Part shown: positions 6,676 through 57,972 of the stretch, piece after piece
How positions within the stretch are numbered: position 1 is the stretch's first letter
Layout: each line of letters opens with the position of its first letter
DNA from: Candidatus Aenigmatarchaeota archaeon
GTDB lineage: Archaea; Aenigmatarchaeota; Aenigmatarchaeia; GW2011-AR5; JAGGXF01
Assembly (NCBI GenBank): GCA_021163205.1
Contig: JAGGXF010000003.1
Coordinates: 1,200-65,199, forward strand
Reading direction: 5' to 3'
DNA length: 64,000 nucleotides
Made by a program: the position numbers and the translations under genes
The notes under the pieces: model-generated
What the model was told of the DNA's origin: nothing
What the model saw: the letters and a program-made list of their open reading frames with translations, nothing else
The model's database searches: none

Positions 6676-8400
6676 CTATTTTTCCATCATCTTGAGAACC
6701 TGCTCTGGTTTTTTCCTATATAATCTTATATATCGAACGACATCACGCCAATCAGAAAAGCTTTTGTTTCGCAGCCACTCAAGAACCTGTTTGCGTCGGG
6801 ACAGCTCTTGCTGTATTCTGCTCATTGAAATGCCCTTCTCTGTCGATATCTTGTGCAGAAGCCACGAATTTCCGTTGTACTCGTAACTATCTTCTGCCGC
6901 AACCCAAGCAAATGCCCTCGTATATTTAACCTTACCCGTGTCTTGATCAACCATACGTATTTCGTCAATTTCTTTGATACGTCTGGCGGATTTTCCTTTT
7001 TCGCGCGCATGAACAAGAATTATTACCAAGTCTAACGTTTCTATTAACCCTGGGGACAGATTTATTGGTTCTGTTTCCAACCTTTTTATGACAGCATCAA
7101 CAGAGCCAGCGTGCATAGTTGCGAGCGACGGATGGCCAGAAGCCATGCCTTGGAACATGACATATGCCTCTTTACCTCTAATTTCACCTACTATCAAATA
7201 GTCTGGGTTTTGCCTGAATGATTCCTTAAGCAAGTCAAACATCGTCACCTCGCCAGTTTCATCCCCGCCAAAACCAAGTCGCGACACGCCAGGTATCCAG
7301 TTCTCGTGGGGCAATGCCAGTTCCCTTGTATCCTCTATAGAAATGATTTTTGCCTCTTCTGGCATAAACAATGATATAGCATTTAGAAAAGATGTTTTGC
7401 CTGTTGAAACGCCACCACATATGAGAATGTTGACTCCGTTTTCAACAGCAAACCATAAATAAGCCATCATCTCAGAGGATGCTGTGCCAAGATTGATTAT
7501 ATCAACTGGTGTAAACGGCGTTTCCCTGAACTTCCTTATAGAAAATGTGGGACCTCTCGTTGTCACGTCTCCGGCAAGTGATGCTTGTACTCGCGTGCCA
7601 TCTGGGAGCGAACCATCCAGGAGCGGCTCGGCATAGCTTATATATCTATTGCATCGCTCTGCAAGCTTTATGACAAATTCTCTAAGTTCTTCTTCATTGT
7701 TGTAGACTATATTTGTTTTTATAGAACCGTACTGTCTGTGAACAACATATATTGGAATTCCTACACCATCACAACCAAGGTCTTCTATGTAAGGGTCATG
7801 TAAAAGCGGTTCTATTATGTTGAGACCAACAAAATCCCTATAAATGTAATACATAATTCTAAAGTATTCTGTTGTCGTCAAATGAAATCCATATTCATCT
7901 ATAAGCATCTGAACGTTCTTTTCCAGGTAATTCATAAGTTTTTCTTGGCTTCTCACCTCGCTCAGGTTGACATCAATCACCTGAATGAGGCCCTCCCTTA
8001 TTTTTTTCAATATTCTTTTCTGCTTCTCGCTAAGTTCCGGCTCTATGACATAATATATATACTCTTCTCGAACAGGGTCCCACATAATTCTGGCATAAGC
8101 ATACGGCTCTATCAGAGGATATCGCATAGTCTTTGGAATTTCCTTAGAAAACATTACAAACCGCTTCGGTGTCCTGAACCTGAATCTCGGATACTTGAAA
8201 TGAATATGTTCGACCTTTTTCAATTTATATTTTTTATGACCATATTCTCCAAGCTTTTTAAGCTCAAGAAGCTGCCCTGCTCGTGTAGTGCTTCTCAAAA
8301 CAGGCTTTCGATATACCCTTATAGTGTTATCTCTCTTCGTCAACTTCCTATACAAAAGTCCTCTCATAGATTTTATTTGATCTAATATGCTTTTTGTCAT
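6676..8400 (-). CDS. type II/IV secretion system ATPase, FlaI/VirB11/GspE family
   Basis: 574 aa. Walker A ICGGVSTGKTSFLNAI. Conserved secretion-ATPase core (ISIEDTRELALPHENWIP, DYLIVGEIRGKEA). Has an N-terminal domain typical of archaeal FlaI-like proteins. Confidence 0.8.
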   Translation of the reverse strand: MTKSILDQIKSMRGLLYRKLTKRDNTIRVYRKPVLRSTTRAGQLLELKKLGEYGHKKYKLKKVEHIHFKYPRFRFRTPKRFVMFSKEIPKTMRYPLIEPYAYARIMWDPVREEYIYYVIEPELSEKQKRILKKIREGLIQVIDVNLSEVRSQEKLMNYLEKNVQMLIDEYGFHLTTTEYFRIMYYIYRDFVGLNIIEPLLHDPYIEDLGCDGVGIPIYVVHRQYGSIKTNIVYNNEEELREFVIKLAERCNRYISYAEPLLDGSLPDGTRVQASLAGDVTTRGPTFSIRKFRETPFTPVDIINLGTASSEMMAYLWFAVENGVNILICGGVSTGKTSFLNAISLFMPEEAKIISIEDTRELALPHENWIPGVSRLGFGGDETGEVTMFDLLKESFRQNPDYLIVGEIRGKEAYVMFQGMASGHPSLATMHAGSVDAVIKRLETEPINLSPGLIETLDLVIILVHAREKGKSARRIKEIDEIRMVDQDTGKVKYTRAFAWVAAEDSYEYNGNSWLLHKISTEKGISMSRIQQELSRRKQVLEWLRNKSFSDWRDVVRYIRLYRKKPEQVLKMMEK

Positions 8401-9076: not shown

Positions 9077-11572
9077 GTGTCGGAGATGGAAATCGGGACA
9101 CATAACAAAGCTTATGAAAATGGACCTAATTTAGATAGTGATTCAACTGAGATCATAAATAAGGTACTTTCTACGAATAAAACCAACCCATTTGAATACA
9201 TCTCTCAATTGAAGAACTATTCTGAATTCTTTGAAAATAAAAACGAAAAAGAGCTCCTTAAAGAAAGATTACCAGAAATTGTTGGTTATAATAATGTATA
9301 TGAAGAAATCACAGACAGAACAACAGCCGCGCTCGCTCTTATAAAAGATGCCATCGCCATCAAAGACTATGACGCGCTGAAGAGCTTCTCTAAGGAATTT
9401 GGGATATCATACGAAAAACTTCTCAAACTGGGGGAGAATATGGATGAGATAGAAAAGACCGTCCGAAGATATATTAGAGGCCTAGTAAAAGAGGAGCTAT
9501 CAGAAGCCAGGGAAAAAGTTAGAAACGAATCAGCGTTGTTGAAAAGGCTCGAAGACCCCGCATATGAAGCAGAGCTTATGAAATATCCGGCCTATCAGTG
9601 GGGTAAACTCTTGAAAGAACTTGAAGATGGGGTAAACAAAGGTTACATAAAGACAGATGATTATGGAAGATACATTCTCGAGCATAATGGAGAGCCGTTC
9701 GCATTGGTTGACCCAGAATACGGTATAATAACAGACAAACCAAATAAAATCTTCGGATGGGACCCAACCTACGACAGACTGGGAAACTATGCAGTTCCCA
9801 CAAAACAGTATCTTATTGATGTTGACAGAGAAGTTGAAATACCAGACTACATTATTGAGGACGTCAAGAAAGATTCTGAGCTAAAAGAAGTGAAAACGAT
9901 AAGAGACCTTCTCAAACTAAGGCCAAAAATTGCAAAGAAATTGGGCATATATGGAGAAAAACACATAGACCCGAAAAAACTAGAAAGCTTCATCTATCTT
10001 TCTGGCAAAAAATCAAGTCTTTGGAAAAAGATAGCATCAGTTCTCATTCCTGCAGCGTTTGTTACTGCAGGTCTTGGCTGTTTGAATGGTCCAAAAGAAA
10101 CAAACCCAACCACAACACCGCAGGTAACTACAGCGCCACCGACTGATACAACACCGCCCACATCAGCAGCGCCAACAACACCAGTGAAAACGCCATCGAC
10201 AACTCCACACGTGACAACAACCGTACCGCCAACAACAACCCCAGCCCCGGACTATGTAGGACCTTATCTGGATGTTTTGGGATTGCCAAGAACACCCGAG
10301 ACAGAAAAAGAAATTAATGAATACTTGATTGAAAAGAATATCAGTCCAGAAGATGTTGGAAAGGTTTTGAAGGAGTTATCAAACTATGGTTTTGTGTCTG
10401 ATAAAGAGGTTCATGATTGGATAACAGACGAGAGACTAACCATACCTGAGATAGCAAATATGTACGAACTAATAGAAGACGGTGCATCCACTGATGTTGC
10501 ACTTTTCTTGGGAGAATATAATGATTGGATAAAGAAGCTGCCGAATTATGAAGAGGTTTTGAAAACATTAAATAACCTCGACCCGAGAGATAAGAAATAT
10601 CTGTTTATACATCCCATGACCGAAGGACGTGTAGAGGCGGCTGATGTCTTCTCGGATTGGTGTAATGGTCAGTATGGTCGGTATGTTACTAATAAAGAAA
10701 ATATAACAGAATTTTCTGCACTTTCAATAATTTATTATTTACCAGCCAGCGAAGGACCAAAGAAAAAAATACTTAGCAGAATGGAAGAAAATTTTAAACA
10801 ATATCCGAAAGATAGACTTGACATGGTGGCAAAAGACCGAAGGGCGTTGTTCTTCCTTTTATACAATATGCACCCTACCCAATTAAATTTTGGATTTGAT
10901 ATAGATAATCAAACAGAAAGTATTATATATCCAGAAACTATCGAAAAAGCCCAGGATGCTGGAAAAATTGTAGATTTGAATCCAGATAATTTAACAGACG
11001 ATGAACTTGGTAGAATTTTCTACTATGTTGCCACAACTGTCAATGGGGGCAGAGAGCTGAGGGGGGATGCAAAAAAACTAGACAAGGCTTTTGATTTGTT
11101 TTTGAAAAGAGAAGAAGATTTTGGAGACTGTCAAGTTGACTCTGCTATATTTTCAAATATTATAAACAATAGCATTCCTTTTGATGGAGAGGGTAATTCA
11201 ATCGCCATAACAACTTTAAATTATGAGAAATTGACTGAAAGATTCGCACCAAGAGATCACGCCTCCCCACTAATTTTAAAAGAGGATAAGAATGGGGACA
11301 TAAATTGTTATGTTCCTTGGTATGATAAGCATAAGAAAAAAATTATTCTTGTTCGTGCAAAATTTTCAGGTTCTTATAGATTTATTTCTCCATATCTACT
11401 TTTAATTGAATATGGAACAGATGAGTATGGAAAGCCTATGCCTATAGTGCATCAATATATAAAAGGGTCTCGAACAGAATTAATAAAACTGCCTGAAGTT
11501 GATATAGATTCGGAGGGACTTGTAAACGAAATCTTTAAGTCAGGCGAAAAATTAATCAGAGCCTGGGATTGA
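9077..11572 (+). CDS. large single-pass membrane protein with Pro/Thr-rich linker; function unknown
   Basis: 831 aa. Has an N-terminal ~315-aa coiled-coil-rich domain and a TM helix (IASVLIPAAFVTAGLGCLNG). A ~60-aa low-complexity T/P linker (TTTPQVTTAPPTDTTPPTSAAPTTPVKTPSTTPHVTTTVPPTTTPAP) follows, then a ~430-aa C-terminal domain. The start may be GTG 9077 or ATG 9086. Confidence 0.6.
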   Translation: MSEMEIGTHNKAYENGPNLDSDSTEIINKVLSTNKTNPFEYISQLKNYSEFFENKNEKELLKERLPEIVGYNNVYEEITDRTTAALALIKDAIAIKDYDALKSFSKEFGISYEKLLKLGENMDEIEKTVRRYIRGLVKEELSEAREKVRNESALLKRLEDPAYEAELMKYPAYQWGKLLKELEDGVNKGYIKTDDYGRYILEHNGEPFALVDPEYGIITDKPNKIFGWDPTYDRLGNYAVPTKQYLIDVDREVEIPDYIIEDVKKDSELKEVKTIRDLLKLRPKIAKKLGIYGEKHIDPKKLESFIYLSGKKSSLWKKIASVLIPAAFVTAGLGCLNGPKETNPTTTPQVTTAPPTDTTPPTSAAPTTPVKTPSTTPHVTTTVPPTTTPAPDYVGPYLDVLGLPRTPETEKEINEYLIEKNISPEDVGKVLKELSNYGFVSDKEVHDWITDERLTIPEIANMYELIEDGASTDVALFLGEYNDWIKKLPNYEEVLKTLNNLDPRDKKYLFIHPMTEGRVEAADVFSDWCNGQYGRYVTNKENITEFSALSIIYYLPASEGPKKKILSRMEENFKQYPKDRLDMVAKDRRALFFLLYNMHPTQLNFGFDIDNQTESIIYPETIEKAQDAGKIVDLNPDNLTDDELGRIFYYVATTVNGGRELRGDAKKLDKAFDLFLKREEDFGDCQVDSAIFSNIINNSIPFDGEGNSIAITTLNYEKLTERFAPRDHASPLILKEDKNGDINCYVPWYDKHKKKIILVRAKFSGSYRFISPYLLLIEYGTDEYGKPMPIVHQYIKGSRTELIKLPEVDIDSEGLVNEIFKSGEKLIRAWD

Positions 11573-11603
11573 AAATTAACTGATTTCTATTAAACCAGAA
11601 GAC

Positions 11604-11648
11604 TCTTTTTGGGCGCTTTAAATAAAGCTGAAGCCTCTCGGCCGAGAG
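11604..11648 (+). terminator. oligo-T run followed by 14-nt perfect palindrome downstream of the 831-aa gene
   Basis: TTTTT at 11604-11608. CTCTCGGCCGAGAG at 11635-11648 is a perfect inverted repeat. Both lie 30-75 nt after the stop at 11572. Confidence 0.3.
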
Positions 11649-11736
11649 ATAATAGAGTAAAAACTGGCGCTGTCAGACAATAAAAAGATTATGCGCCTAT
11701 GCGCGACCGAAAGCTGAGCCTCCGGTACTTGTTTTA

Positions 11737-11764
11737 TATCAGCACTAGTTGGCTTTTGAAGAAT
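11737..11764. repeat. 28-bp direct repeat, copy 1 (TATCAGCACTAGTTGGCTTTTGAAGAAT)
   Basis: Identical 28-mer recurs at 14166-14193. The two copies bracket a three-gene cassette. Confidence 0.9.
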
Positions 11765-11916
11765 CCCCTTTAATATTGAATAGAATTGACTCGTTCCGTC
11801 ATTTTCTTAATAGAAAGAAAAAATAAAGGTCAAAAAACAAGTAAAGTAGAAGTCTTGGCTTTCGGCTCTTTCTTGATATTTTCAAGGTTGCTCATAAAGT
11901 TGTTAGAAACCGCCTA

Positions 11917-12306
11917 TCAAATAGTAGGTCCTGGACCAATATCTATGCAGCGACAGCAATAATCTTCTCCTGGCAAGTCTGGGTCGCAATCCTCTTCATA
12001 CCCAATACACTTGAGCGTGCCAACACTTCTACATGATGTCGAATCATCTACACACAAATAACCTGTGTTGCATTTAGTAACACCCTGGCTTTGCTCTTGC
12101 TCGGCTTTCACAACCTCTATGTCTTGCCAATCGGTCTCCCCGGCAGAATAATAACAGCACTGGTCGGGCTTAGAAGAACCATAAGAACTTCTTACGGATT
12201 CTGGGTCGTATGGCGGCGTCAACGACGCCAAATAAAAGAAGTAAGGCACGCAGCCGCACTCGCTGTAGCATTTCTGGCCTTCAGGACATGTGTCGTCATA
12301 CTTCAC
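11917..12306 (-). CDS. Cys-rich hypothetical protein (15 Cys in 129 aa), GC-rich relative to surroundings
   Basis: ORF MKYDDTCPEGQKCYSECGCVPYFFY...DYCCRCIDIGPGPTI has CC and CxC motifs throughout. Local GC content is visibly higher than the flanks. No signal peptide is evident. The coding status is uncertain. Confidence 0.4.
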   Translation of the reverse strand: MKYDDTCPEGQKCYSECGCVPYFFYLASLTPPYDPESVRSSYGSSKPDQCCYYSAGETDWQDIEVVKAEQEQSQGVTKCNTGYLCVDDSTSCRSVGTLKCIGYEEDCDPDLPGEDYCCRCIDIGPGPTI

Positions 12307-12378
12307 GATCCAATACTTAAGAGCAAGTTCTTTCTATTATTTAAGATAATTTTTAATACATAGAAATTAATTTATTTC

Positions 12379-13080
12379 ATGCTCTCCGTGATTCTGCCAG
12401 TTCACAACGAAGAAGAAAATCTTAAGCGGAATTTCTATAAAATTTATAAAAGTTTTGTTGGTCTTGGCGAAAAATTCGAAATCATAATTGCTGAGGACGG
12501 CTCTACTGACAACAGCCCAAAAATCTGCGAAAAATTTAAAAAGGAATTCAAAAATGTAAGGCACATTCACAGCAATACTAAACTGGGCAAAGGAAAGGCT
12601 CTTACTAATGCCATTCTAAAATCAAAAGGAAACAAGATCTGCTTTATGGACATAGACCTTTCGGCAGATCTTAGACACATTAAAAAAATAATAAAATGCC
12701 TGGAAACAAATGATATTTGCATCGGTTCTAGATATTCGAGAAGGAGCAAAAGATTTGGCAGTATGAAAAGGCTCTTGTTAAGCAGAGTATACAACTTTCT
12801 GGTAAGGATGGTTCTTGGCTCCAAAATCAGTGACCATCAGTGCGGTTTCAAGGCTTTTCGCAAAAAAAGTGTTCTGCCGATTTTGAAAAGGATGAAAAGC
12901 AAAAGCTTTTTCTGGGACACGGAAATGCTTGTTCTGGCGCAAAGAGCGCGCCTGAAGATAAAAGAAATTCCTGTTGTCTGGAGGGAGGGAAAAGACACGC
13001 GAGTAGATGTCATCAAGGACAGCATCTCAATGTTCTATGGAATAATAGAACTGAGAAAAAGATTGTCTAAAGGGTTGTAA
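12379..13080 (+). CDS. family 2 glycosyltransferase (dolichyl-phosphate sugar synthase-like)
   Basis: 233 aa. MLSVILPVHNEEENL...IIAEDGSTDNS...MDIDLSAD carries the GT2 DxD/ED signature of the DPM1-like architecture. Confidence 0.8.
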   Translation: MLSVILPVHNEEENLKRNFYKIYKSFVGLGEKFEIIIAEDGSTDNSPKICEKFKKEFKNVRHIHSNTKLGKGKALTNAILKSKGNKICFMDIDLSADLRHIKKIIKCLETNDICIGSRYSRRSKRFGSMKRLLLSRVYNFLVRMVLGSKISDHQCGFKAFRKKSVLPILKRMKSKSFFWDTEMLVLAQRARLKIKEIPVVWREGKDTRVDVIKDSISMFYGIIELRKRLSKGL

Positions 13081-19632: not shown

Positions 19633-19726
19633 GGGTCTGTAGTCTAGCTAATGCGCAAGCATCTAGAATGGTCTAGGATCGGGCCTTCGGGAGGCTCAGA
19701 CAGGAGTTCAAATCTCCTCAGACCCA
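19633..19726 (+). tRNA. tRNA-Pro(CGG) with putative 20-nt non-canonical intron in the D-loop (19649-19668)
   Basis: Acceptor GGGTCTG/CAGACCC. T-arm AGGAG-TTCAAAT-CTCCT. Anticodon stem-loop GGGCC-TTCGGGA-GGCTC (anticodon CGG, U33, G37). The D-region is 20 nt too long: AGC[TAATGCGCAAGCATCTAGAA]TGGTCTA. Confidence 0.7.
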
Positions 19727-25543: not shown

Positions 25544-27601
25544 TTATTCTATCACAAATGCACCAGATCCTGAGGCTACTCGCATTTCTATGTCAGATAA
25601 CCTCTGTTCAAGTCGCCTTATCCTATCCTCTATGTTATGCGTTGATACTTTGGTCGGGGCTGGTGATGACACACTTAGCGGTATTGCTTTCATTCTCATG
25701 AGCTCATCTTTTGTGACAAGCTCAGGCAATTTCCTATCCAGCGTTTCGGCGAACTTCTCAAGGTTTTTGGTAACTAGCGATACAATCCGATCATCTAAAT
25801 CTTTCTTAATTTTTTCTTCCAAGTCTGTCTCTGGCGACTTTTCAGACAGCCGGGCCTTTATCTCTTCTATATCGCGCATCGCAGAATCAAACCTTCTAAT
25901 CTTGTTCTCCACGCCAGAACTCATAGTTTCTATCTTTCTGACTATATCGCTTGCCTGGTCAATCTTCGATTGTATTTTTTCAGCATCAATTGTCATCTGG
26001 TTCAGGGAATCTATTTTTGTATACACCGCATCCTTCAAAGCATTCATATTGTCTATATAAGCCATGAACTTTTCCTCATTTACTTTGGACCTGTTTTCCA
26101 TCTCCTGTTGTAACTCAGAAATTCTTCTCAATCCTTCATCTAGAGCCTTCGACTTTTCTTCCACCATAGAACGGAATGCCTCTATTGATGCAACCTTCTT
26201 GTCAAAATCGTTTTTAATCTGCCTAATACGAGACTCTATAGCACTCAGCTGGTCAACCTTGCTTCTGACGTGGTCAGCAAGTCGCTCAGCTGTTTGCAGC
26301 CTTTTATCCATCGCTTCAAGCCTCTCATTCATAGCATCGTTTATGGCTTTCATGTTGTCAATATTATTTTTCATTTTATCTTCGAATATCTTTCTCGTAG
26401 CATCGATATCAGCACTTATCTTTTCTACCTCAGCCAGTTTTTCATCTGTTTTCGAGAATTTTTCTTCTATGTTTCTATCGAGAGAATCAAGCCTTTGAAT
26501 ATCGTTTCTAACTTTTTCCTCGATTGTGTTCATTTTAGTAATAGCGGCTTCCACTTTTTGTAGGACTGCGTCAGCAGTTTCAGCCTTATCTTTTATCTTT
26601 CCAAGTGCCAATATAAGCTGGTTTATCATTTCCCTGCTTCGATTAAGCTCTTCCTGATCCTTTTTCATTTCAGCCCGAGCAGAGCGTATCTTTTCAAGAA
26701 ACATATCCATACCTTTTTGGGTAAGCATTTTTCCCGAGTTCTCCACCAACTCTTCGATCTTATCAATCTTGGAGCGAATCTCAGCCAGATTTTGCTCCAT
26801 ATTTTTCTCTATTTTTTCGACGTGATTTGCTTGAAGAAGTATTTCTTTTTTGAACTCTGTTTGTAACTCATCCTTCAGATTATCAATATCTTTTTTCAGT
26901 TCTTCTATATGGCTCCCAAAAGAATTTGCTGATCGACATGTACTTTTCAGATTCTCGATGTCTGAAGAGAGACTCTTGATTTGTTCATCTATATCCTTAG
27001 TCTTCTCGTTGTAACTTTGCTTAATGGCATCGATGTCTTTTCTTAGACCTTCAATAATGCCAGATTCTACGCCAGACGGCTCTTCTATAATAGCGTGCTT
27101 AAGAGCTTCTATTTTTGATTCTAGCGCCTTTATACGGTCTTCATCTATACCAGACCCGCGAAGATGTTTTATTCTTTCTTCTATTTTCTGCATAATGCCT
27201 TCGCCCGGAACACCTGCTCCTATTTTCTCTAGTCTCTCTTCTAAAGAGGCGACCTTTTTTTGTAGGTCCTTCATTGTTTTTTCCTGTGTTATATCGAGCT
27301 TCTCTCCTCGCTCCAAAAGAAATTCTTTTAATTTGACCATTTCTGCCTCAAGCAACATCTGTAAGTCTTCTATCTCCAATATTCTCTCGTTCAGCTCCTC
27401 AATACCAGAAGGTGAACTTGGTCCTGGGCCAGAAACAATCTCTACGTTCTCAGAATTTGGCTCTTCTGTTTCTGATTCAGTTTCTTCTTTACTCATATTT
27501 CCCCTATCTTTACCCACTTCACTAGGCGTGTCTGTTTCTGAAATACTAGAATGGGACTCGCCAACATTTTTTACGTCTTTTTCTTCTTGCATAGATACCA
27601 A
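25544..27601 (-). CDS. 685-aa coiled-coil protein (acidic N-terminus, ~550 aa continuous heptad-repeat region)
   Basis: Extremely E/K/L/I-rich with periodic hydrophobics throughout. No Walker motifs. Antisense ORFs on the + strand (25590-26498, 27024-27611) are low-complexity artifacts. Confidence 0.6.
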   Translation of the reverse strand: MVSMQEEKDVKNVGESHSSISETDTPSEVGKDRGNMSKEETESETEEPNSENVEIVSGPGPSSPSGIEELNERILEIEDLQMLLEAEMVKLKEFLLERGEKLDITQEKTMKDLQKKVASLEERLEKIGAGVPGEGIMQKIEERIKHLRGSGIDEDRIKALESKIEALKHAIIEEPSGVESGIIEGLRKDIDAIKQSYNEKTKDIDEQIKSLSSDIENLKSTCRSANSFGSHIEELKKDIDNLKDELQTEFKKEILLQANHVEKIEKNMEQNLAEIRSKIDKIEELVENSGKMLTQKGMDMFLEKIRSARAEMKKDQEELNRSREMINQLILALGKIKDKAETADAVLQKVEAAITKMNTIEEKVRNDIQRLDSLDRNIEEKFSKTDEKLAEVEKISADIDATRKIFEDKMKNNIDNMKAINDAMNERLEAMDKRLQTAERLADHVRSKVDQLSAIESRIRQIKNDFDKKVASIEAFRSMVEEKSKALDEGLRRISELQQEMENRSKVNEEKFMAYIDNMNALKDAVYTKIDSLNQMTIDAEKIQSKIDQASDIVRKIETMSSGVENKIRRFDSAMRDIEEIKARLSEKSPETDLEEKIKKDLDDRIVSLVTKNLEKFAETLDRKLPELVTKDELMRMKAIPLSVSSPAPTKVSTHNIEDRIRRLEQRLSDIEMRVASGSGAFVIE

Positions 27602-27607
27602 CTTTGG

Positions 27608-28252
27608 TTAAACGTGATAATTATTTTTTGTTCTTTTTGGAATATATAAGTTTTCTTTTTTGGTTTTCATTCTTTTGGCCTTGAATTTCTCTCTTTCCTT
27701 GAAATAGTGTCCAAACCATTTTGAGCCTTTATACCAGTAAATCCAACACACGAGAAGAACTGCTATAAGCCCCCAACTCCACAGCGTTTTGTGTATGATT
27801 TCGAATTTTTCTACCCCGAAGCTCGAAACAAAGAAAAAGACAAACCATACGCGCATTATGTTAGCCAGATATAAAAGAGGGATGAAAATCCAGGCGTTGA
27901 GCTTTTTTTTCCAGTCTGTTGGGGTTGCTACAACAAGCGCGATGAAAACCAGGATAGACTTCCACCCGGTACAATCCCAATCGATTGTTCCGCCAAACAT
28001 CCCTGTTTTTATAGGAACCGTTATCATAAGCCCACTAAGCCCAGCGCGGATGCCCGTAATATTCAGAAACATTGTGACAACTCTGGCTGTGAACAACTGA
28101 AGAAAGTAGATGTTATTCCGGGTGAGAAAATATAGAGGTATGATAAAAATATTAAATACGACAGAAAATTTGAGTATCTTGATGAGTTTAGTATTAAGCC
28201 TTGTTTTTTTGATTCTAAGCTTTACTCTCGGCTTAGATAATGTGCTAGTCAT
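27608..28252 (-). CDS. exosortase/archaeosortase-family transmembrane protein (small variant)
   Basis: 214 aa, polytopic. Motif TIDWDCTGWKSILVF resembles the exosortase active-site C(S/T)G...S block. Conserved R and N lie in later TM helices (ANIMRVWF). Confidence 0.5.
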   Translation of the reverse strand: MTSTLSKPRVKLRIKKTRLNTKLIKILKFSVVFNIFIIPLYFLTRNNIYFLQLFTARVVTMFLNITGIRAGLSGLMITVPIKTGMFGGTIDWDCTGWKSILVFIALVVATPTDWKKKLNAWIFIPLLYLANIMRVWFVFFFVSSFGVEKFEIIHKTLWSWGLIAVLLVCWIYWYKGSKWFGHYFKEREKFKAKRMKTKKENLYIPKRTKNNYHV

Positions 28253-29357
28253 TCATACGACCTCTATAATTTTTTATCCAGCTTTGAAACCATGTCTTAA
28301 GATGTTCCTGCATGAGCCTTTCTATATCACACCGGCACACGAAAAACCCACCACCAATTTTTTTTATTCTCCCCCTAAATCCTGTTACATTCCTGATGAC
28401 AGGTATCGTCGTTTTTAAGCTAACCGAATCTGGTGATATAATTAATCTTGGTTCATGCTCCTCTAAATAGCTTACATTACCACGCAACTTTTCGACGAAA
28501 AGCACCTTTCCTCTAATTTTTCCTGCTTTCATAAGTTCTGCCTTGCTCAAGTCTTTCAGAATGATGATATTTTCGTATGCTTGGAGCAACTCTTTTCGTT
28601 CCTCCAAATGCTTTGCTAGTTCTTCTTTGTAGAGTTTTTTCAGATTATCAAGTTGAAAAACCAATTTTTCCAACTTTTTCGGAGTAATTCTTCTTATTTT
28701 GGTTTTCCTTATATGTTTTATCTTTTCTTTCAGCTCCTCATTCTCCCTCTCTAGCTTCTTTATGGTATGCTTTAGCGCTCTTTCGGACATCTCTAGATGT
28801 CTCAGTTTTTGTTCAAGAATGCGTGAGCTTCTAGCTACAACAACGGTCTGGTGCACAATCCTTTTTTGTTCAGGTTTCTTGTTCATTAAAACATTAAGCG
28901 CATCACTCACCTTTAACTCATTCTTGAAGACAAGCGAAATGATATCTTCCTTGAGAGAACCCAGTTTCTCTTTCTCTAGAATCTTATCTATTCTTTTCAC
29001 TTTTTCCCTTACCTGATTAAATGCGAACAAAGCTGACGCTAACGCATCCTCTTCATGGTCGTTTTTGATATATTTATTATACCCCCTAATCAGATCGATT
29101 TTTTCTTGGCTTGGTATATCCTTGTTTGGTGCAATTATTTTCGAACCGAATGTTCTGGCTATCTGTCTGACCAGGTTTGGGACTTTTTTCTTGTCTGTTG
29201 TAATAACAACGGGGTCTCCAAGTTTCGCTATTTCATATATAATGTCATCTCTAGAGAATCCCTTTCTGCTAACAGCGCCTACAAAGTTCGAATTGAAATC
29301 GATTGCAGAAACGGCTGTCGTAAGACCGGGGTCTATCCCGACAATGAGCTTTTTCAA
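28245..29357 (-). CDS. RNase H-fold (YqgF/RuvC-like) nuclease-domain protein with C-terminal coiled coil (DUF460-like)
   Basis: N-terminus MKKLIVGIDPGLTTAVSAIDFNSNFVG matches the YqgF-type start. The middle region has long K/E-rich coiled coils. Confidence 0.5.
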   Translation of the reverse strand: MKKLIVGIDPGLTTAVSAIDFNSNFVGAVSRKGFSRDDIIYEIAKLGDPVVITTDKKKVPNLVRQIARTFGSKIIAPNKDIPSQEKIDLIRGYNKYIKNDHEEDALASALFAFNQVREKVKRIDKILEKEKLGSLKEDIISLVFKNELKVSDALNVLMNKKPEQKRIVHQTVVVARSSRILEQKLRHLEMSERALKHTIKKLERENEELKEKIKHIRKTKIRRITPKKLEKLVFQLDNLKKLYKEELAKHLEERKELLQAYENIIILKDLSKAELMKAGKIRGKVLFVEKLRGNVSYLEEHEPRLIISPDSVSLKTTIPVIRNVTGFRGRIKKIGGGFFVCRCDIERLMQEHLKTWFQSWIKNYRGRMND

Positions 29358-29486
29358 TAAAAACCACTCCTGTCCTTTTTTGCATCTTTTGACCTACTAA
29401 TAAATGTGCATGAAAAATTAAAAGAATTTACTGAGCCACGAAAATGCTTGTCACTCTCTCGAGCACTTCTATCGACACGCCGATAT

Positions 29487-29576
29487 ATGACACGTGTACT
29501 GATTATGATTATAAGAACAACAGACATGGCGGGTTGTTGAGAATCTCTTGAGCTCACCAGAGCTAATTTTCATTGC
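29487..29576 (+). repeat. ~90-bp intergenic repeat element, copy A (46-nt perfect core 29531-29576)
   Basis: Core GGGTTGTTGAGAATCTCTTGAGCTCACCAGAGCTAATTTTCATTGC is identical to 40773-40818. The preceding ~45 nt are ~80% identical, in the same orientation. Confidence 0.85.
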
Positions 29577-29598
29577 ATTCATTGATCACATTTCTAGC

Positions 29599-30774
29599 CT
29601 AGTTTCGCAAGGTCTTGAAAACGATTTCTGCGCTTTCTGCGCTTTTCCACAGCCTTAAAAGCTCATTCAGTTTCGATATTCGCATACCTGCTATTCCGAA
29701 TTTAGCAAGAGGAACAAGTTGTGCAAGCTTTGAAACCACACCACAACACGTTTCTCCGCTCCTGTGTGAGACGATAGGAGTTATGTCGTTTGCATTGGCT
29801 ATTTCAATGAGCTTCATACAATCGGTTATTGTTCCTATCTGGTTCGGCTTTACAATGACGCCACTCATAGCTTTTCGTTTGACCGACTCTTCCAGACGTT
29901 TTGGACTCGAAGCAATTATATCGTCTCCAGTTATTATGACATTTTTCAGTTTTTTTGTCAGCTCTGAAAACCCATCAAAATCTGCCTGTTCAAATGGGTC
30001 TTCTATGAAGTAAAGATTATACTTTTTTGCTAACTCAACAACATAATCTACCTGCTCACCCGGACTCAACTTTTTGTCGTAGTAGACATACTTTCCAATC
30101 TTTTCATCCCAGAATGATGTCGCGGCCATATCGACACCAAGCAATGCTCTGTCGCCAACAATATCAGATATTATGTCTAGCGCTTTCTCATCTTCGATAT
30201 CAGCTGTCCAGCCAGACTCATAATCAAGACCGACATGGCCAATCTTCAAAAGTCTTTCTCTCACCTCTTTCCATATCTCAAAGTTCGATTTAAGCACATC
30301 CCACATCGTCTCTATCTCCCCACACACTTTTGTCGTGACAAGAAATTCTTGTATCGAGGTCTTCCTGGACCCGGCGTGTTTTCCTCCCCCGACTACCTTT
30401 CCGAGTATGTTTGGAAAGGTATTTCTAGTTGGAGTGGATGAAAAAAATGCAAGAGATATGGCTGTTGTGACTTGTGATCCAAGCTCATTTATGTGTTTTT
30501 TTAACAAAGCATCTAAACGCTCCTGAGTAAAGTCTCCGAGAAATTCGTTTTTCAAGGAAGAAAAGGCATTTATAGCTGTATCGGGAGATATTGCTCCCTG
30601 CGCAAACTTGCTGACACTTGTTCCACCAGCAGCACTTGCTCTATAGACAGCTTGATCGCCGAAAATGGTTGCTTCTATGGTTTCGTGTCCAACAGAATCA
30701 AATATTTTTATGAGTTTAATATCTTTGATTAACATAGAATAACTATACATATCTAGCCATATAAAACTAACCAT
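29599..30774 (-). CDS. eno: enolase (divergent; SHRSGETCC in place of canonical SHRSGETED)
   Basis: 391 aa. N-terminus IKDIKLIKIFDSVGHETIEA. Also DMAATSFW, VKPNQIGTITD, SHRSGETCCG and a C-terminal KLNELLRL. Confidence 0.75.
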   Translation of the reverse strand: MVSFIWLDMYSYSMLIKDIKLIKIFDSVGHETIEATIFGDQAVYRASAAGGTSVSKFAQGAISPDTAINAFSSLKNEFLGDFTQERLDALLKKHINELGSQVTTAISLAFFSSTPTRNTFPNILGKVVGGGKHAGSRKTSIQEFLVTTKVCGEIETMWDVLKSNFEIWKEVRERLLKIGHVGLDYESGWTADIEDEKALDIISDIVGDRALLGVDMAATSFWDEKIGKYVYYDKKLSPGEQVDYVVELAKKYNLYFIEDPFEQADFDGFSELTKKLKNVIITGDDIIASSPKRLEESVKRKAMSGVIVKPNQIGTITDCMKLIEIANANDITPIVSHRSGETCCGVVSKLAQLVPLAKFGIAGMRISKLNELLRLWKSAESAEIVFKTLRN

Positions 30775-35739: not shown

Positions 35740-35919
35740 AGTTATTCATAGGTATGGAAATGTTTTTATTATAAATATGAACAACGGCTCGTAGAATAAA
35801 TCCTATAAAATCACAGATATACGTTTTTTAGTTTGCTTTTGTTATAATAAATACCTTCTTGAAGCTCCCATCACATTATCAAAAATTAATTTAAATCAGA
35901 TAGTACATAAAACTAAATC

Positions 35920-38903: not shown

Positions 38904-39056
38904 ATGCTACTTAGAAAATGCCCCAGATGTGGGTCTTATTCTCTGCGAGATAAATGCGAAAAATGCGACTCTGTCACACGAAACCCGCACCCTCCGAAAT
39001 TCTCTATAACAGATAAATACGCTAAATATCGCCAGAAAGCAAAGATGAAAATATAG
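38904..39056 (+). CDS. nop10: H/ACA RNP protein Nop10 (50 aa; absent from ORF track because <60 aa)
   Basis: Translation MLLRKCPRCGSYSLRDKCEKCDSVTRNPHPPKFSITDKYAKYRQKAKMKI matches the Nop10 zinc-ribbon plus PxxFSP..DKY..YR consensus. Canonical position after aIF2-alpha. Confidence 0.7.
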   Translation: MLLRKCPRCGSYSLRDKCEKCDSVTRNPHPPKFSITDKYAKYRQKAKMKI

Positions 39057-40302: not shown

Positions 40303-40528
40303 CCACGCTGTTGACTTTTTTGAAATCTCTATCACCACGTGACTCATCTTCATATTTCTCATCTGTCGCTGTACATACGCGAAGGGGATGAACAAAGTAA
40401 AAAGACCGAGAATAAGGCACGCATTCGACTTTTAGTTCTTTCTCGTTGTGCTTTTTTTGAAGGTGGCTTAATAACGATAACTATTAATACTTTTTCTTAT
40501 TTTAAATGCTATCAGCAGCGGTGGTCTT

Positions 40529-40645
40529 ATGGACGACGAGTTTGATGACATGGAACTAGAAGACGACGAGTTTGATGATGACTTTGATGACGAAGACTAT
40601 TTCGATGAGGACGATATTGACGACGAAGATGAAGATGATCTCTGA
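40529..40645 (+). CDS. candidate 38-aa hyper-acidic microprotein (MDDEFDDMELEDDEFDDDFDDEDYFDEDDIDDEDEDDL)
   Basis: Uninterrupted ATG..TGA frame. GGTGG Shine-Dalgarno-like motif 5 nt upstream. Internal DDEFDD duplication. Not in ORF track (<60 aa). Speculative. Confidence 0.25.
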   Translation: MDDEFDDMELEDDEFDDDFDDEDYFDEDDIDDEDEDDL

Positions 40646-40726
40646 TTAGAATGTCTTTGTCACCAAAAGTCAGAGTTTTATTCTCTTTTTTAATTCAGAT
40701 TACCCAATTTCTCAACAAGCCCAATT

Positions 40727-40818
40727 ATGACACGTATATCTGATTATGACATAAGAAGAATACACATGATATGGGTTGTTGAGAATCTCTTGAGCTCACC
40801 AGAGCTAATTTTCATTGC
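40727..40818 (+). repeat. ~90-bp intergenic repeat element, copy B (46-nt perfect core 40773-40818)
   Basis: See copy A at 29487-29576. Same orientation on + strand. Lies 62 nt upstream of the Trm112-like gene start. Confidence 0.85.
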
Positions 40819-40880
40819 GTTTGTCAGGTTCGCTGGGTAATATTATAAACAATAAATTTCTTACTACTAATGGTTTTAAT

Positions 40881-41045
40881 ATGGTATCTAGAAAATTGTT
40901 GGACATTCTAGCCTGCCCAAAATGCAAGAAACCGATAGACTATGATAAAGAAAATAATCAACTAATTTGTCACAGATGTAGATTAAAGTTTAAAGTAAAA
41001 GATGAGATTCCGGATATGTTGCTGGAAGACGCAGAAGCATTTTAG
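40881..41045 (+). CDS. Trm112-like small zinc-finger protein (DUF343)
   Basis: MVSRKLLDILACPKCKKPIDYDKENNQLICHRCRLKFKVKDEIPDMLLEDAEAF matches the Trm112/YbaR pattern (LLxILxCPxC...L.C..C...YP..DGIPxML). Confidence 0.6.
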   Translation: MVSRKLLDILACPKCKKPIDYDKENNQLICHRCRLKFKVKDEIPDMLLEDAEAF

Positions 41046-55262: not shown

Positions 55263-55724
55263 ATGGGAGAAATGACGGAAACAAAAAAAATTGTAAGACT
55301 TATAAACACAGACTTAGATGGCAATCTTAGCGTTGCAAGAGCGTTGCAAAAAATAAAAGGCATTGGGCCAACAATAGTAAAAGCTGTATGCATAAAAGCA
55401 AAAATAGACATGAGGACTAAACTCGGTAGCCTCAGTCAAGATGAGATTAATCGTATAGAAGAGGTTATAAAAAAATCTGATTTTCCTCATTGGATAACAA
55501 ATGCGAGAAGCCAGACAGAGAAAACGCATCTAGTTTCATCTAAAATAGACTTTGAGGTAAGAAAAAGAATAAATGTCCTGAGGCAGATCAGAGCATATCG
55601 CGGCATAAGACACGAACAAAATCTTCCAGTGCGTGGACAACGGACCAGAGGAAGTTTTCGACACAATAAAACTGTTGGTGTTCAAAAAAGAAAGGCTTTA
55701 CAAGCCAAGCGTGGAAAAAAATAA
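55263..55724 (+). CDS. rps13: 30S ribosomal protein S13 (uS13)
   Basis: VRLINTDLDGNLSVARALQKIKGIGPTIVKAVC...RQIRAYRGIRH matches S13. Confidence 0.85.
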   Translation: MGEMTETKKIVRLINTDLDGNLSVARALQKIKGIGPTIVKAVCIKAKIDMRTKLGSLSQDEINRIEEVIKKSDFPHWITNARSQTEKTHLVSSKIDFEVRKRINVLRQIRAYRGIRHEQNLPVRGQRTRGSFRHNKTVGVQKRKALQAKRGKK

Positions 55725-55734
55725 AGTGATGTGA

Positions 55735-56232
55735 ATGGGTCATCCAAAAAAACCAAGAAAAAAATATGAAAAACCAAAGCGTCCTTACGACAAAGATAGA
55801 ATCGCCAAAGAAAAAAAGCTTATGAATGAGTTTGGCTTGAGGAGAAAGAGAGAAATCTGGAAAGCAGAAAGTATTTTGAGAGACTTCAGAAAAAGAGCCA
55901 GGGACCTCCAGGGAAAAAGAGATGAGGAAAAAGAAAAAGAGCTGATAAATAGACTTTACAGGCTTGGATTAGTGACCAAATCCGCTAGCCTGGATGATGT
56001 TCTTGAGCTTAAATTAGAAGACATATTATCTAGAAGATTACAAAGCATAGTTTTCAATAAAAAAATTGCAAATAGCCCAAAACACGCAAGGCAGTTAATT
56101 GTTCATGGTCATATCTTAATAAATGAGAGAAAAGTTAGATGGCCAAGTTTTCTAGTTCCGACAGAACTTGAAAATAAAATAAGGCTAAGTCCAAAAATAA
56201 AAAACCAACTGATAGCTGGTGAAAAAGAATGA
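55735..56232 (+). CDS. rps4: 30S ribosomal protein S4 (uS4)
   Basis: [23 protein letters not shown]. Has an S4 RNA-binding domain ([21 protein letters not shown]). Confidence 0.85.
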
Positions 56233-56627
56233 CCAAAAAAGGAAAAATAAGATGGGGAATAGCAAACATATTTTCATCCACTAACAACACAATAATTCAT
56301 ATAACAGACATCACTGGGTCTGAAACCATTGCAAAATATTCCGGTGGGATGATAACTAACCAAGATAGGCTTAAAGGAAGTCCATTTCCTGCGATGAAAG
56401 CAGCACAGAAAGCTGCAGAAGACGCGCTAGCTCACAACATTAACGCTGTTCATATCCGTGTAAGAGCACCGGGAGGGCATAAGTCAAAAATTCCGGGCCA
56501 AGGTGCGCAGCCTGCAATAAGAGCACTTGCCCGTTCTGGTCTCAAGATAGGAAGAATAGAGGATGTTACGCCCATACCCCACGATTCAACAAGAAAGAAG
56601 GGCGGCAGAAGAGGGAGAAGGGTGTAA
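56229..56627 (+). CDS. rps11: 30S ribosomal protein S11 (uS11)
   Basis: [34 protein letters not shown]...[10 protein letters not shown] matches S11. Start overlaps the S4 stop. Confidence 0.85.
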
Positions 56628-56630
56628 ATT

Positions 56631-57425
56631 ATGAATATGAAAATCTTGGAGAAGAGTCCAAAGTTTGTGAAATTCGTTTTGGAAAAAACTACCCCAGCGT
56701 TTGCAAACGCCTTAAGAGAGATTATGGTAGCAGAAATACCAACTATGGCTATTGAATATGTAGACATAGAAAAAAATACAACAGGTTTATTTGATGAGCT
56801 TCTTGCTCATCGCCTGGGGTTAATACCACTAACCTTCGACTCAAGGCTTTTCAACCTCAAGGAAGAATGTAAATGTGGTGGTAAAGGATGCAGTAGATGC
56901 GAAGTCATATTAACTCTTGAAAAAAAAGGACCATGCAAAGTATATTCTGGTGACCTGAAAAGCAATGAGGACAGCGTAAAACCAACAAACCCAAACATAC
57001 CAGTAGTTGAGTTGCTTGAAGGCAGAGAACTCAAACTACAAGCTGTTGCATCACTCGGAATAGGAAAAAACCACGCAAAGCATCAGGCAGCTGTGGTGGG
57101 CTATCAATATTTGCCACACATAAGAATAGATAAAGATAAGTGCAATAATTGTGGTGTGTGTGTGGAGAAATGCCCGAAAAAAATTTTACAGAAAAAAGAT
57201 GGAAAGGTTTGCATAGTCAACAGCATGGAATGTTCACTCTGCATGTACTGCGTTGATAATTGTGAGAAAAGAGCGATAGCCGTAAGCGGAGATGAAAAAA
57301 ACATTTTATTCCGCGTTGAAACAGTCTCTGGTTTGACAGCACCAGAAATCATAAAACAAGCTTTTAATGTGCTAAACAAAAAATTATCGATTTTCAAAGA
57401 TGGGCTCGAAAAGGCAGTCAAATGA
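56631..57425 (+). CDS. rpoD: DNA-directed RNA polymerase subunit D (Rpo3) with 4Fe-4S ferredoxin-like insert
   Basis: 264 aa. Dimerisation domain. CNNCGVCVEKCP and CSLCMYCVDNC cysteine clusters (domain 3 of archaeal Rpo3). Confidence 0.8.
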   Translation: MNMKILEKSPKFVKFVLEKTTPAFANALREIMVAEIPTMAIEYVDIEKNTTGLFDELLAHRLGLIPLTFDSRLFNLKEECKCGGKGCSRCEVILTLEKKGPCKVYSGDLKSNEDSVKPTNPNIPVVELLEGRELKLQAVASLGIGKNHAKHQAAVVGYQYLPHIRIDKDKCNNCGVCVEKCPKKILQKKDGKVCIVNSMECSLCMYCVDNCEKRAIAVSGDEKNILFRVETVSGLTAPEIIKQAFNVLNKKLSIFKDGLEKAVK

Positions 57426-57475
57426 ACCCTCTGGGCGAATCTTTTAATAACGAAATGAAATAATACTGATATAAC

Positions 57476-57620
57476 GCTGGGGTACCCAAGTCATGGTCTT
57501 TTTGACCACTTGAATGGCCAAAGGGGCAGGTTCATTTGACTCCTGACCAAAGGTCAAATGATGTCATACTTAAGATCCTGTGACTTAGTGTCTGCGTGGG
57601 TTCAAATCCCATCCCCAGCA
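57476..57620 (+). tRNA. class II tRNA (probably tRNA-Leu, anticodon likely CAG) with putative 20-nt D-loop intron (57499-57518) and ~38-nt anticodon-loop intron
   Basis: Acceptor GCTGGGG/CCCCAGC plus A73. Intact T-arm GTGGG-TTCAAAT-CCCAT. D-arm CCC-AAGTCATGGTC[TTTTTGACCACTTGAATGGC]CAAA-GGG is collinear with the tRNA-Ser D-arm once the insert is removed. Anticodon stem GCAGG/CCTGT encloses ~45 nt (TTC...AGAT). Long variable arm GACTTAGTGTCTGC. Isotype assignment is uncertain. Confidence 0.55.
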
Positions 57621-57630
57621 TTGTATCAAT

Positions 57631-57972
57631 ATGGGCGATTTGATGAAAAAAACAGACAAAACCTTGATTGAACTTGTAAAGAAGTTGAAAAAACGCAAAG
57701 AGGGGTTTTACCAAGCATTGGCTAGATATCTATCGGCAGCGAGAAGAAAACGCACCGCTGTAAATATCGCGAAGATAGACAAAATTGGAAAAGAGGGGGA
57801 ATTGATTGTCGTTCCAGGAAAAGTTCTTGGGAACGGAATATTAACAAAAAATATCTCCGTATGTGCATATTCATTCAGTAAGTCTGCTGAGAAAAAAATA
57901 AAAGAAAGGGGAAATATCGTGTCTTGGGATGAGCTCATTGAGAAAAATATGCGAGGAAGAATCATTATATAG
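57631..57972 (+). CDS. rpl18e: 50S ribosomal protein L18e
   Basis: KTDKTLIELVKKLKK...YQALARYLSAARRKRTAVNIAKIDKIGKEGELIVVPGKVLGNG matches L18e. Confidence 0.8.
   Translation: MGDLMKKTDKTLIELVKKLKKRKEGFYQALARYLSAARRKRTAVNIAKIDKIGKEGELIVVPGKVLGNGILTKNISVCAYSFSKSAEKKIKERGNIVSWDELIEKNMRGRIII

Follow-up and report, generated by a model that had tools for sequence, protein, structure and literature searches.

The 64-kb stretch of DNA analysed here, referred to throughout as the window, contains housekeeping genes only, and no integrase, transposase, tyrosine recombinase or reverse transcriptase is encoded within it. Two of its intergenic spacers each carry one copy of a repeat unit of ∼115 nt, which we designate E (copy A, E_A; copy B, E_B). 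Copy A (29463–29579, + strand, ∼117 nt) lies in the 241-nt spacer that separates the stop codon of enolase at 29599 from the start of DUF460 at 29357, two − strand genes to which it is antisense. The enolase gene (29599–30735) was assigned by Pfam and by its place in the gene order of L002, the nearest species representative (a Candidatus Aenigmatarchaeota MAG found by a primase-anchored search, 79% primase identity), from which its start codon is inferred; the DUF460 gene (28245–29357) forms the other flank of the copy A junction. The DUF460 protein of the window is identical to MCD6557450.1 (Candidatus Aenigmarchaeota), and a search with it returned this species only, followed by a next protein at 59% identity.

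Copy B (40704–40821, + strand, ∼118 nt), which is found in all strain contigs listed, follows a small Asp/Glu-rich (acidic) ORF downstream of rpoK (40529–40645, + strand; T-rich terminator at ∼40676–40692) and precedes a Trm112-like gene (40883–41045, + strand), whose promoter is conserved with L002 from ∼40838. It is situated 64 nt upstream of the Trm112-like ATG (40883) and also upstream of the Trm112 TATA-like box, 15 nt past the acidic-ORF terminator and 17 nt ahead of that box. An initial annotation of this DNA had placed copy A antisense in the enolase/DUF460 gap and copy B in sense orientation 5′ of the Trm112-like gene, and both placements hold. The 11.2 kb between the copies encode enolase, Cbf5, a YidC-like protein, a kinase-like AAA protein, L44e, GINS and PriS, together with a CBS-domain protein, L7Ae/S28e/L24e, S27e, eIF2-alpha, PAC2 and RpoK.

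At the heart of both units is a 46-nt core, GGGTTGTTGAGAATCTCTTGAGCTCACCAGAGCTAATTTTCATTGC, which occurs exactly twice in the window, at 29531–29576 (copy A) and 40773–40818 (copy B), both on the + strand, as had been reported; a third match was not found in the window at up to three mismatches, and none of 100 dinucleotide-preserving shuffles contained a match. The core is the same in every strain contig examined. Upstream of it, the two window copies are 72% identical over an arm of 68–69 nt with five gap columns, a figure that rises to 77% when copy A of a sister clade (see below) is used instead, so that the homology described previously for ∼45 nt upstream of the core is real but its degree falls short of the ∼80% then estimated. 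The unit is also longer than the ∼90 bp first proposed, because strain variants, alignments and an nhmmer profile place the start of homology between the copies further upstream, at ∼29463 and ∼40704; its downstream end lies 3 nt past the one originally given. The resulting unit (29463–29579 and 40704–40821) is composed of an imperfect palindrome of ∼80 nt, followed by a 33-nt tail that carries a terminator-like hairpin and a T-run.

Folding and inverted-repeat scans locate the palindrome of copy B at 40706–40788, where it ranks second in length among the local inverted repeats of the 64 kb. Its right arm is formed by the first part of the core, GGGTTGTTGAGAA, and its left arm, TTCTCAACAAGCCC, is found at the far upstream end of the unit; the initial annotation had overlooked this long inverted repeat. 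Positions 40709–40731 pair with 40765–40786 in copy B, around a centre TTATG-A-CATAA near 40745–40755, and the nhmmer profile of E matches its own reverse strand as well. The predicted RNA fold of copy B reaches −32.9 kcal/mol on the + strand, at z = −4.9 (−4.2 for the − strand), and its DNA fold has z = −3.7, with no equally stable fold among 200 shuffles. The same region of copy A yields no significant hairpin (z about 0; DNA z = −0.6 and +0.4), and its arm (29463–29530, + strand) is a decayed quasi-palindrome that includes a hypervariable segment, as judged from folding and strain alignment. The 33 nt of the core that lie outside the palindrome carry AGCTC-ACCA-GAGCT (29551–29564 and 40793–40806) followed by AATTTT, a + strand terminator-like signal recognized in both copies by a consensus scan (29551–29570 and 40793–40812, both + strand) and, for copy A, recovered in every fold. 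This was one of two short inverted repeats noted earlier within the core; the other, given as GAGA-AT-TCTC, actually reads GAGA-A-TCTC. Folded by itself, the 46-nt core is no better than its shuffles (z = +0.25).

E is a species-restricted, two-copy, non-coding repeat in the data searched. No exact match to a 20-mer of the core was obtained among 185,579 species represented by one genome each, and searches of IMG/VR with three different sub-patterns of the core came back empty. Among JGI metagenome contigs the 20-mer matches three, which carry either copy A or copy B from this very species, in a scan that is not exhaustive (it missed the known carriers L011 and L015); a single sample, Ga0164318, contains exactly one contig with copy A and one with copy B. 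Neither BLASTN nor tblastn of E returned anything in L001, L002 or L025, and an nhmmer profile built from the four sequence variants of E, all of which have identical cores, detected no diverged copies in the window or in the loci of relatives.

Metagenome contigs carrying these loci fall into two clades, one >99.7% and the other about 98.2% identical to the window, and both copies occupy the same sites in both. The organism is present in samples of the ENA SPET22-1 and DOMB18-1 series and in JGI 3300017593, 3300013103, 3300014913 and 3300005265. The E_A unit is identical in the window-type strains L004, L005 and L026, of which L005 ends its contig with a join of 29600 to 27349, and E_B is present in all of the strain contigs L008–L015, L018–L020 and L022. 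Between the clades, the background of 8–10 differences per 500 nt leads to an expectation of ∼0.8 changes per core, and none was seen in either copy in either clade. This invariance is unexceptional, both because so few changes are expected and because the adjacent unique spacer is equally unchanged: the flanks of copy A at 29350–29477 and 29530–29631 show no differences between clades. The core is thus no better conserved than the unique spacer DNA that adjoins it.

Differences are concentrated in the arm of copy A, where 29478–29529 holds 13 differing alignment columns, the rest of the 241-nt spacer being identical; the 8 substitutions and 2 indels in these 68 nt of arm make up the densest substitution cluster in 20 kb. 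Counted by eye, the two copy A alleles differ at ∼10 sites, and at 7 of these the sister clade has the state of copy B, which fits patchy conversion between the copies. Through two changes, the arms of the window allele gain a new complementary CGCC/GGCG pair, the kind of change that template switching would make. Copy B differs between clades solely by the loss of 19 nt from the sister clade (40724–40742 on the + strand, with equivalent placements up to 40733–40751) within 40695–40994; 40695–40723 and 40743–40994 are unchanged. The direct repeat ATTATGACA...ATTATGACA loses one of its units in this way, and the shortened copy still forms a hairpin (z = −3.5 for RNA, −4.2 for DNA). The initial annotation had suggested that a neutral duplication remnant would show just two copies, unexpressed and with one of them decayed in close relatives, and in copy number and decay this is largely the picture obtained: two copies only were found, and the structured part of copy A has decayed and differs sharply between close strains.

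The surroundings of the two copies have been rearranged relative to related genomes. L002 encodes on one strand, in order, z′, CBS...RpoK, the acidic ORF, enolase, rps2, PriS-GINS-L44e-AAA-YidC-Cbf5 and Trm112-L10e, where z is the window block 55271–57971 and z′ the same block inverted, upstream of CBS. L025 has the order TFB, histone, eIF5A, DUF460 and an EpsH-like gene, with a spacer of 68 nt between eIF5A and DUF460. In relatives rps2 follows enolase, and in L002 Cbf5 is directly upstream of Trm112. The genes between the two copies are syntenic with L002 as blocks, and six adjacencies are new in the window: acidic ORF|Trm112, Cbf5|enolase, enolase|DUF460, eIF5A|rps2, PriS|CBS and rps2|z. 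Under a double-cut-and-join (DCJ) model, in which each cut-and-rejoin of two adjacencies counts as one event, the six resolve into three independent two-break cycles, so that the window differs from the two relatives by three or more rearrangement events. Two of the three jointly shift the segment enolase-rps2-PriS...Cbf5 by ∼13 kb in circularly permuted form, and the third is an inversion.

E is present at two of the six new junctions, with copy B at acidic ORF|Trm112 and copy A at enolase|DUF460. Promoters and terminators that the window shares with the relatives (the acidic-ORF terminator, and the enolase, rps2, Trm112 and DUF460 promoters) extend up to the junctions, and the acidic-ORF terminator is the last sequence in common with L002 before copy B. 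The new DNA that is left amounts to ∼145 nt (40693–40837) and ∼170 nt (29443–29612), and E accounts for ∼115 nt of each; the chance that two randomly placed intergenic elements would both fall in junction spacers is ∼0.016. At the other four new junctions, a search for E-like sequence gave nothing past an 11–14-nt AT-rich match, and no significant alignment to a potential E donor was obtained in the ancestral junctions (the Cbf5 3′ end and the acidic-ORF-enolase, enolase-rps2 and eIF5A-DUF460 spacers). When the inversion is undone, the copies become inverted and lie at the outer edges of the entire reshuffled segment. No single recombination of E with E yields the present gene order, as it could produce only a DUF460-Trm112 join plus an 11-kb circle.

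On the basis of the observed anatomy of E, its copy number in the data searched, its location at junctions and its pattern of variation, we consider the chances about even that E is a low-copy, species-restricted, quasi-palindromic non-coding repeat whose duplication was tied to the break-up of the rpoK-enolase-rps2 cluster; it resembles a remnant of genome rearrangement more than a family of sRNA genes. Each copy represents most of the new DNA at one new gene junction, where it may have been inserted as a small non-autonomous element of the hairpin type, or may have been copied in as junction filler. We infer the mechanism of duplication, including the choice between these two routes, as well as the absence of a cellular function. 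The perfect core would reflect a duplication too recent for ordinary sequence to have diverged, making selection unnecessary; recent duplication explains it better than selection does, because the unique spacer around copy A is equally unchanged. Divergence of the arms, in turn, could be attributed to the tendency of imperfect palindromes to act as mutation hotspots (through template switching and slippage), in combination with short-patch exchange between the copies. Copy B is predicted still to form a hairpin or cruciform, and copy A is decaying. Consistent promoters, Rfam matches and conserved reading frames were not found for E.

Several observations run against this explanation. Only two of the six new junctions contain E, no single recombination event accounts for both copies, and neither hallmarks of transposition nor a donor sequence in the ancestral junction regions were found. 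The count of two copies comes from the window, the loci of relatives and database scans, of which the metagenome scan missed known carriers. The copy B hairpin survives in both clades, its stem intact after the 19-nt deletion, and could be under selection. Nucleotides 1–13 of the core, which are part of the palindrome, never vary, whereas the partner arm does.

E is another small hairpin repeat of a known sort, not a new class. MITE-like elements (the enterobacterial RU/ERIC units and the Neisseria Correia elements) and REP-type palindromes are small intergenic hairpin repeats (PMC3184786), and E resembles them in its size range (∼100–130 nt), in being non-coding and intergenic, in its sharp ends and long stem-loop, and in adjoining gene ends and rearrangement points. 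Unlike these repeats, E has two copies in a single species, without a target-site duplication, a related transposase in the window or evidence of mobility; nor does it have terminal inverted repeats at its true ends, because its inverted repeat runs from the left end of the unit only as far as the middle. Inspection of the flanks of both copies revealed no shared or duplicated bases that would denote a target-site duplication, the two ends match over just ∼4–5 nt (GCAMT...ATTGC), and presence/absence polymorphism of the insertion was not seen among strains. Of the three possibilities raised in the initial annotation (a small ncRNA gene family, a miniature mobile element and a shared regulatory site), the miniature element is closest to the evidence in its sharp ends, its hairpin-forming quasi-palindrome and its intergenic location at synteny breakpoints, although none of the hallmarks of mobility was found.

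Quasi-palindromes are also hotspots of template-switch mutation (PMC7202029; PMC9435742). E shares with these hotspots clustered changes and small indels confined to an imperfect inverted repeat with identical flanks, along with a deletion between direct repeats; switching would here be a reading of two alleles, and some of the changes match conversion from copy B instead.

The chief alternative, that E is a pair of paralogous + strand sRNA genes, each producing a lineage-specific transcript of ∼35–45 nt, appears unlikely to us. Its proposed layout comprises a putative TATA-like box in the proximal arm (the ATAAGAA region), a start near the beginning of the core and an end at AGCUC-ACCA-GAGCU plus the U-run. 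Despite their opposite gene contexts both copies would then be self-contained units, each made up of a possible promoter, a segment that does not vary and a terminator-like end; ATTATGA, ATAAGAA and ACATG are common to all four arm variants, and the 19-nt deletion in copy B is upstream of the putative promoter, which it spares. The box of the window copy A, ATTATAAG, is similar to the TATA-like boxes of neighbouring genes, but that of copy B, GACATAAG, makes a poor TATA, and the spacing from box to core differs by 2 nt between the copies. De novo derivation of a promoter matrix by Gibbs sampling, applied to 51 upstream regions, yielded no stable motif at a defined position. At the Rfam gathering threshold the window contains only a tRNA (19633–19726), and permissive scans of both copies give only sub-threshold matches at chance level; similarly, antisense matches to the core within the window are 10–12 nt long, as expected by chance. 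The fold of the core (z = +0.25, as above) counts against this reading, as does its invariance, which is no greater than that of the adjacent unique DNA and is thus no sign of purifying selection, and a homologue outside the one species was not found in the databases searched. The suggestion of a small ncRNA gene family made in the initial annotation hence finds no positive support, given Rfam matches at noise level, a core without a special fold, a poor box in copy B and a total of two copies.

Quite improbable, in our judgement, is a role for E as a cis-acting structural element at the new junctions, in the form of a terminator or insulator, an mRNA 3′-end stabiliser or a protein-binding site. 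An insulator would be useful at copy B, between the acidic-ORF terminator and the Trm112 TATA, once that junction had formed; neither clade has lost the hairpin of copy B, and both copies carry the terminator-like motif. A terminator or insulator suits the position of copy B but not that of copy A. Copy A is antisense to both flanking genes: a + strand terminator there would be without a target, because no + strand gene lies upstream, and on the − strand its T-run reads as an A-run. Its long hairpin, moreover, has decayed. The terminator-like motif has an upstream gene on the same strand at copy B only, and that gene has a T-rich terminator of its own, conserved in L002. Four Ts are a weak termination signal in archaea, which counts against this alternative.

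A third alternative holds that E is a recombination site of folded DNA, attC-like or based on another hairpin, through which the ∼10-kb segment enolase-rps2-PriS...Cbf5 was moved via a circular intermediate. We regard this as only remotely probable, and the corresponding scenario, in which both copies are the surviving sites of hairpin-DNA recombination and the block was excised as a circle and re-inserted ∼13 kb away, as very unlikely. Two of the three inferred events do amount to excision and re-integration of a circularly permuted block, with E marking the donor scar and one of the integration junctions, but E is missing from the partner products Cbf5|enolase and eIF5A|rps2. The stem CTCAAC...GTTGAG is reminiscent of the R″/R′ boxes of attC (YYYAAC / GTTRRR), with one bulged base, and as in integron attC sites the imperfect palindrome falls within the 60–140-nt range, has a variable centre and RYYYAAC/GTTRRRY-like stem ends, and includes an extrahelical base (the bulged G). 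E differs from attC, however: an unpaired central spacer and a cassette array are missing, the window encodes no integrase, and the copies of E share primary sequence, including the identical 33-nt tail, which extends past the putative crossover and is unexpected for attC. A tyrosine recombinase is not encoded in the 64 kb, and what lies between the copies are essential housekeeping genes, not cassettes. Were this reading true, E would point to a cassette-like shuffling of core replication and translation genes in a DPANN archaeon.

Finally, it is barely plausible that the − strand of E codes for a small Cys-rich protein (MKISSGELKRFSTTRHVCCSYNHNQYTCHISACR in copy A) with a conserved, core-encoded N-terminus and a variable C-terminus. 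Both alleles of copy A keep the frame open (a pair of opposite indels, 5 nt from each other, restores it, and four of four Cys are kept), the 19-nt deletion in copy B falls past the stop codon of a 23-aa version, and on the − strand the copy B ATG is preceded at 26 nt by TTTATAAT, the Trm112 TATA region in reverse complement, but the C-terminal parts are unrelated because two frameshifts separate copy B from copy A, the GGTG-type ribosome-binding site of neighbouring genes is missing (copy A has a weak GTGAT, copy B none), no gene caller called the frame in >10 contigs, and tblastn found no relative in the outgroup loci. About one-third of the substitutions are synonymous, close to what neutrality would roughly predict, and silent divergence is very high; in this only open frame, 4 of the ∼13 changed nucleotides are synonymous, and silent divergence exceeds the background several-fold, which indicates a mutational or recombinational process and not selection on a peptide.

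Other identities were considered and rejected. Small ORFs on both strands are frameshifted between the copies, and a + strand ORF is destroyed (MT*) in the sister-clade copy B. A tRNA, a split tRNA or a tRNA-like 3′ end (CACCA) can be set aside, with no ARAGORN prediction at the repeat and a misfit of T-arm and D-arm. C/D and H/ACA sRNAs were discarded on missing boxes and sub-threshold Rfam scores. E is like archaeal box C/D sRNAs in its terminal stem and its internal CUGA and UGAU-like motifs, which give rise to sub-threshold Rfam snoRNA matches (16.5 bits vs. a cut-off of 44, and 20.3 vs. 75), but unlike them it has no canonical C box (RUGAUGA) and no D box beside the terminal stem, the best candidates being AUGACAC and AUGA with a C-to-D′ spacing of 8 nt, which is wrong for this class with its guide regions of ∼12 nt. 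The template/variable pair of a DGR does not fit, as the 15 mismatches between copies A and B involve all four bases and are accompanied by indels, both copies are intergenic and the window has no reverse transcriptase. A replication origin, with inverted boxes flanking AT-rich DNA, is at odds with direct copies 11 kb apart, with the lack of a nearby Orc1/Cdc6 gene and with a skew that follows the coding strand. An integrated element between the repeats was dismissed on the housekeeping content of the segment, which has no integrase or foreign genes: as with attL and attR, an 11.2-kb segment lies between two direct repeats that are identical over at least 46 bp, but in contrast to attL/attR the bracketed segment contains neither an integrase nor a tRNA target, and its base composition is not atypical.

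A perfect core beside a diverged flank mimics the signature of selection on an RNA, and the case of E is a caution in this respect, as comparison of orthologues shows the reverse: nothing sets the core apart, and it is the flank, a quasi-palindrome, that mutates fast. Provided that E is indeed linked to rearrangement, it marks the outer boundaries of a block interchange that split the widely conserved rpoK-enolase-rps2 cluster, and would offer a small, datable case of gene-order change in a reduced DPANN genome with almost no mobile DNA. As direct repeats, the two copies could still recombine with one another, looping out 11.2 kb of essential genes.

The same break sites, at 30597-30654 and 38939/38940, recur in independent assemblies of different samples. 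The first lies in the 5' part of the enolase gene, where two contigs stop at 30654 and a gap of Ns spans 30597-30653 in one scaffold; positions 38939-38941 form the break point of three contigs. No repeat connects the two sites, and possible causes of the shared breaks are strain-level structural variation or drops in coverage.

At the end of a metagenome contig from a window-type strain of the same species (JGI 3300017593, Ga0187538_172788), window positions 29502-29600 are fused to position 27349 onward. The fused segment comprises copy A (one of two ∼115-nt repeat copies, 29463-29579, + strand, between enolase and DUF460) together with its right flank as far as the enolase stop codon, the join point at 27349 falls within an ATG17-like gene, and the join displays microhomology (CATTTCT(A)GCCT). 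This join, seen in a single contig, could mean that a subpopulation carries DUF460, an EpsH-like gene and copy A as a tandem duplication or circle of 2.25 kb; alternatively, the contig could be an assembly chimera.

The enolase itself (29599-30735, - strand) is short, at ∼378 amino acids, and matches the Enolase_N domain only faintly. Its counterpart in L002, the corresponding locus of a related genome (8114-9238), is likewise short with a faint match, suggesting that reduction of the N-terminal domain is a trait of this lineage.

Rfam identifies a tRNA at 19633-19726 (+ strand, 44.4 bits), which probably contains an intron, given its length of 94 nt; ARAGORN reports no tRNAs in the whole window.

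The divergent spacer between PriS and a CBS-domain gene (35740-35919) is one of the window's new junctions (gene adjacencies absent from its relatives) as well as the local switch point in gene strand, and 8-nt and 2-nt indels within it separate the two clades of strains. The cumulative GC skew reaches its minimum nearby, at ∼36-38 kb; a replication origin at this spacer is only a thought, because the window harbors no Orc1/Cdc6 gene. In L002, the PriS-GINS interval contains a 1.2-kb insertion (11360-12545) that the window lacks, in which a candidate NUDIX-like ORF and a candidate RelE/ParE-like toxin-antitoxin pair were recognized by eye.

Downstream (3') of rpoK lies a 38-amino-acid ORF (40529-40645, + strand) in which nearly all residues are Asp, Glu or Phe. 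L002, whose proteins are ∼79% identical to those of the window, retains this ORF (7858-7974), its promoter (AACTATTAATAC...TTTTAAAT) and its T-rich terminator; the ORF is probably a real gene encoding a small acidic protein. The 226-nt spacer separating rpoK from this ORF (40303-40528) contains no annotated gene, and a comparison of the 98%-identical clades reveals six substitutions clustered within 30 nt of it (40363-40392).
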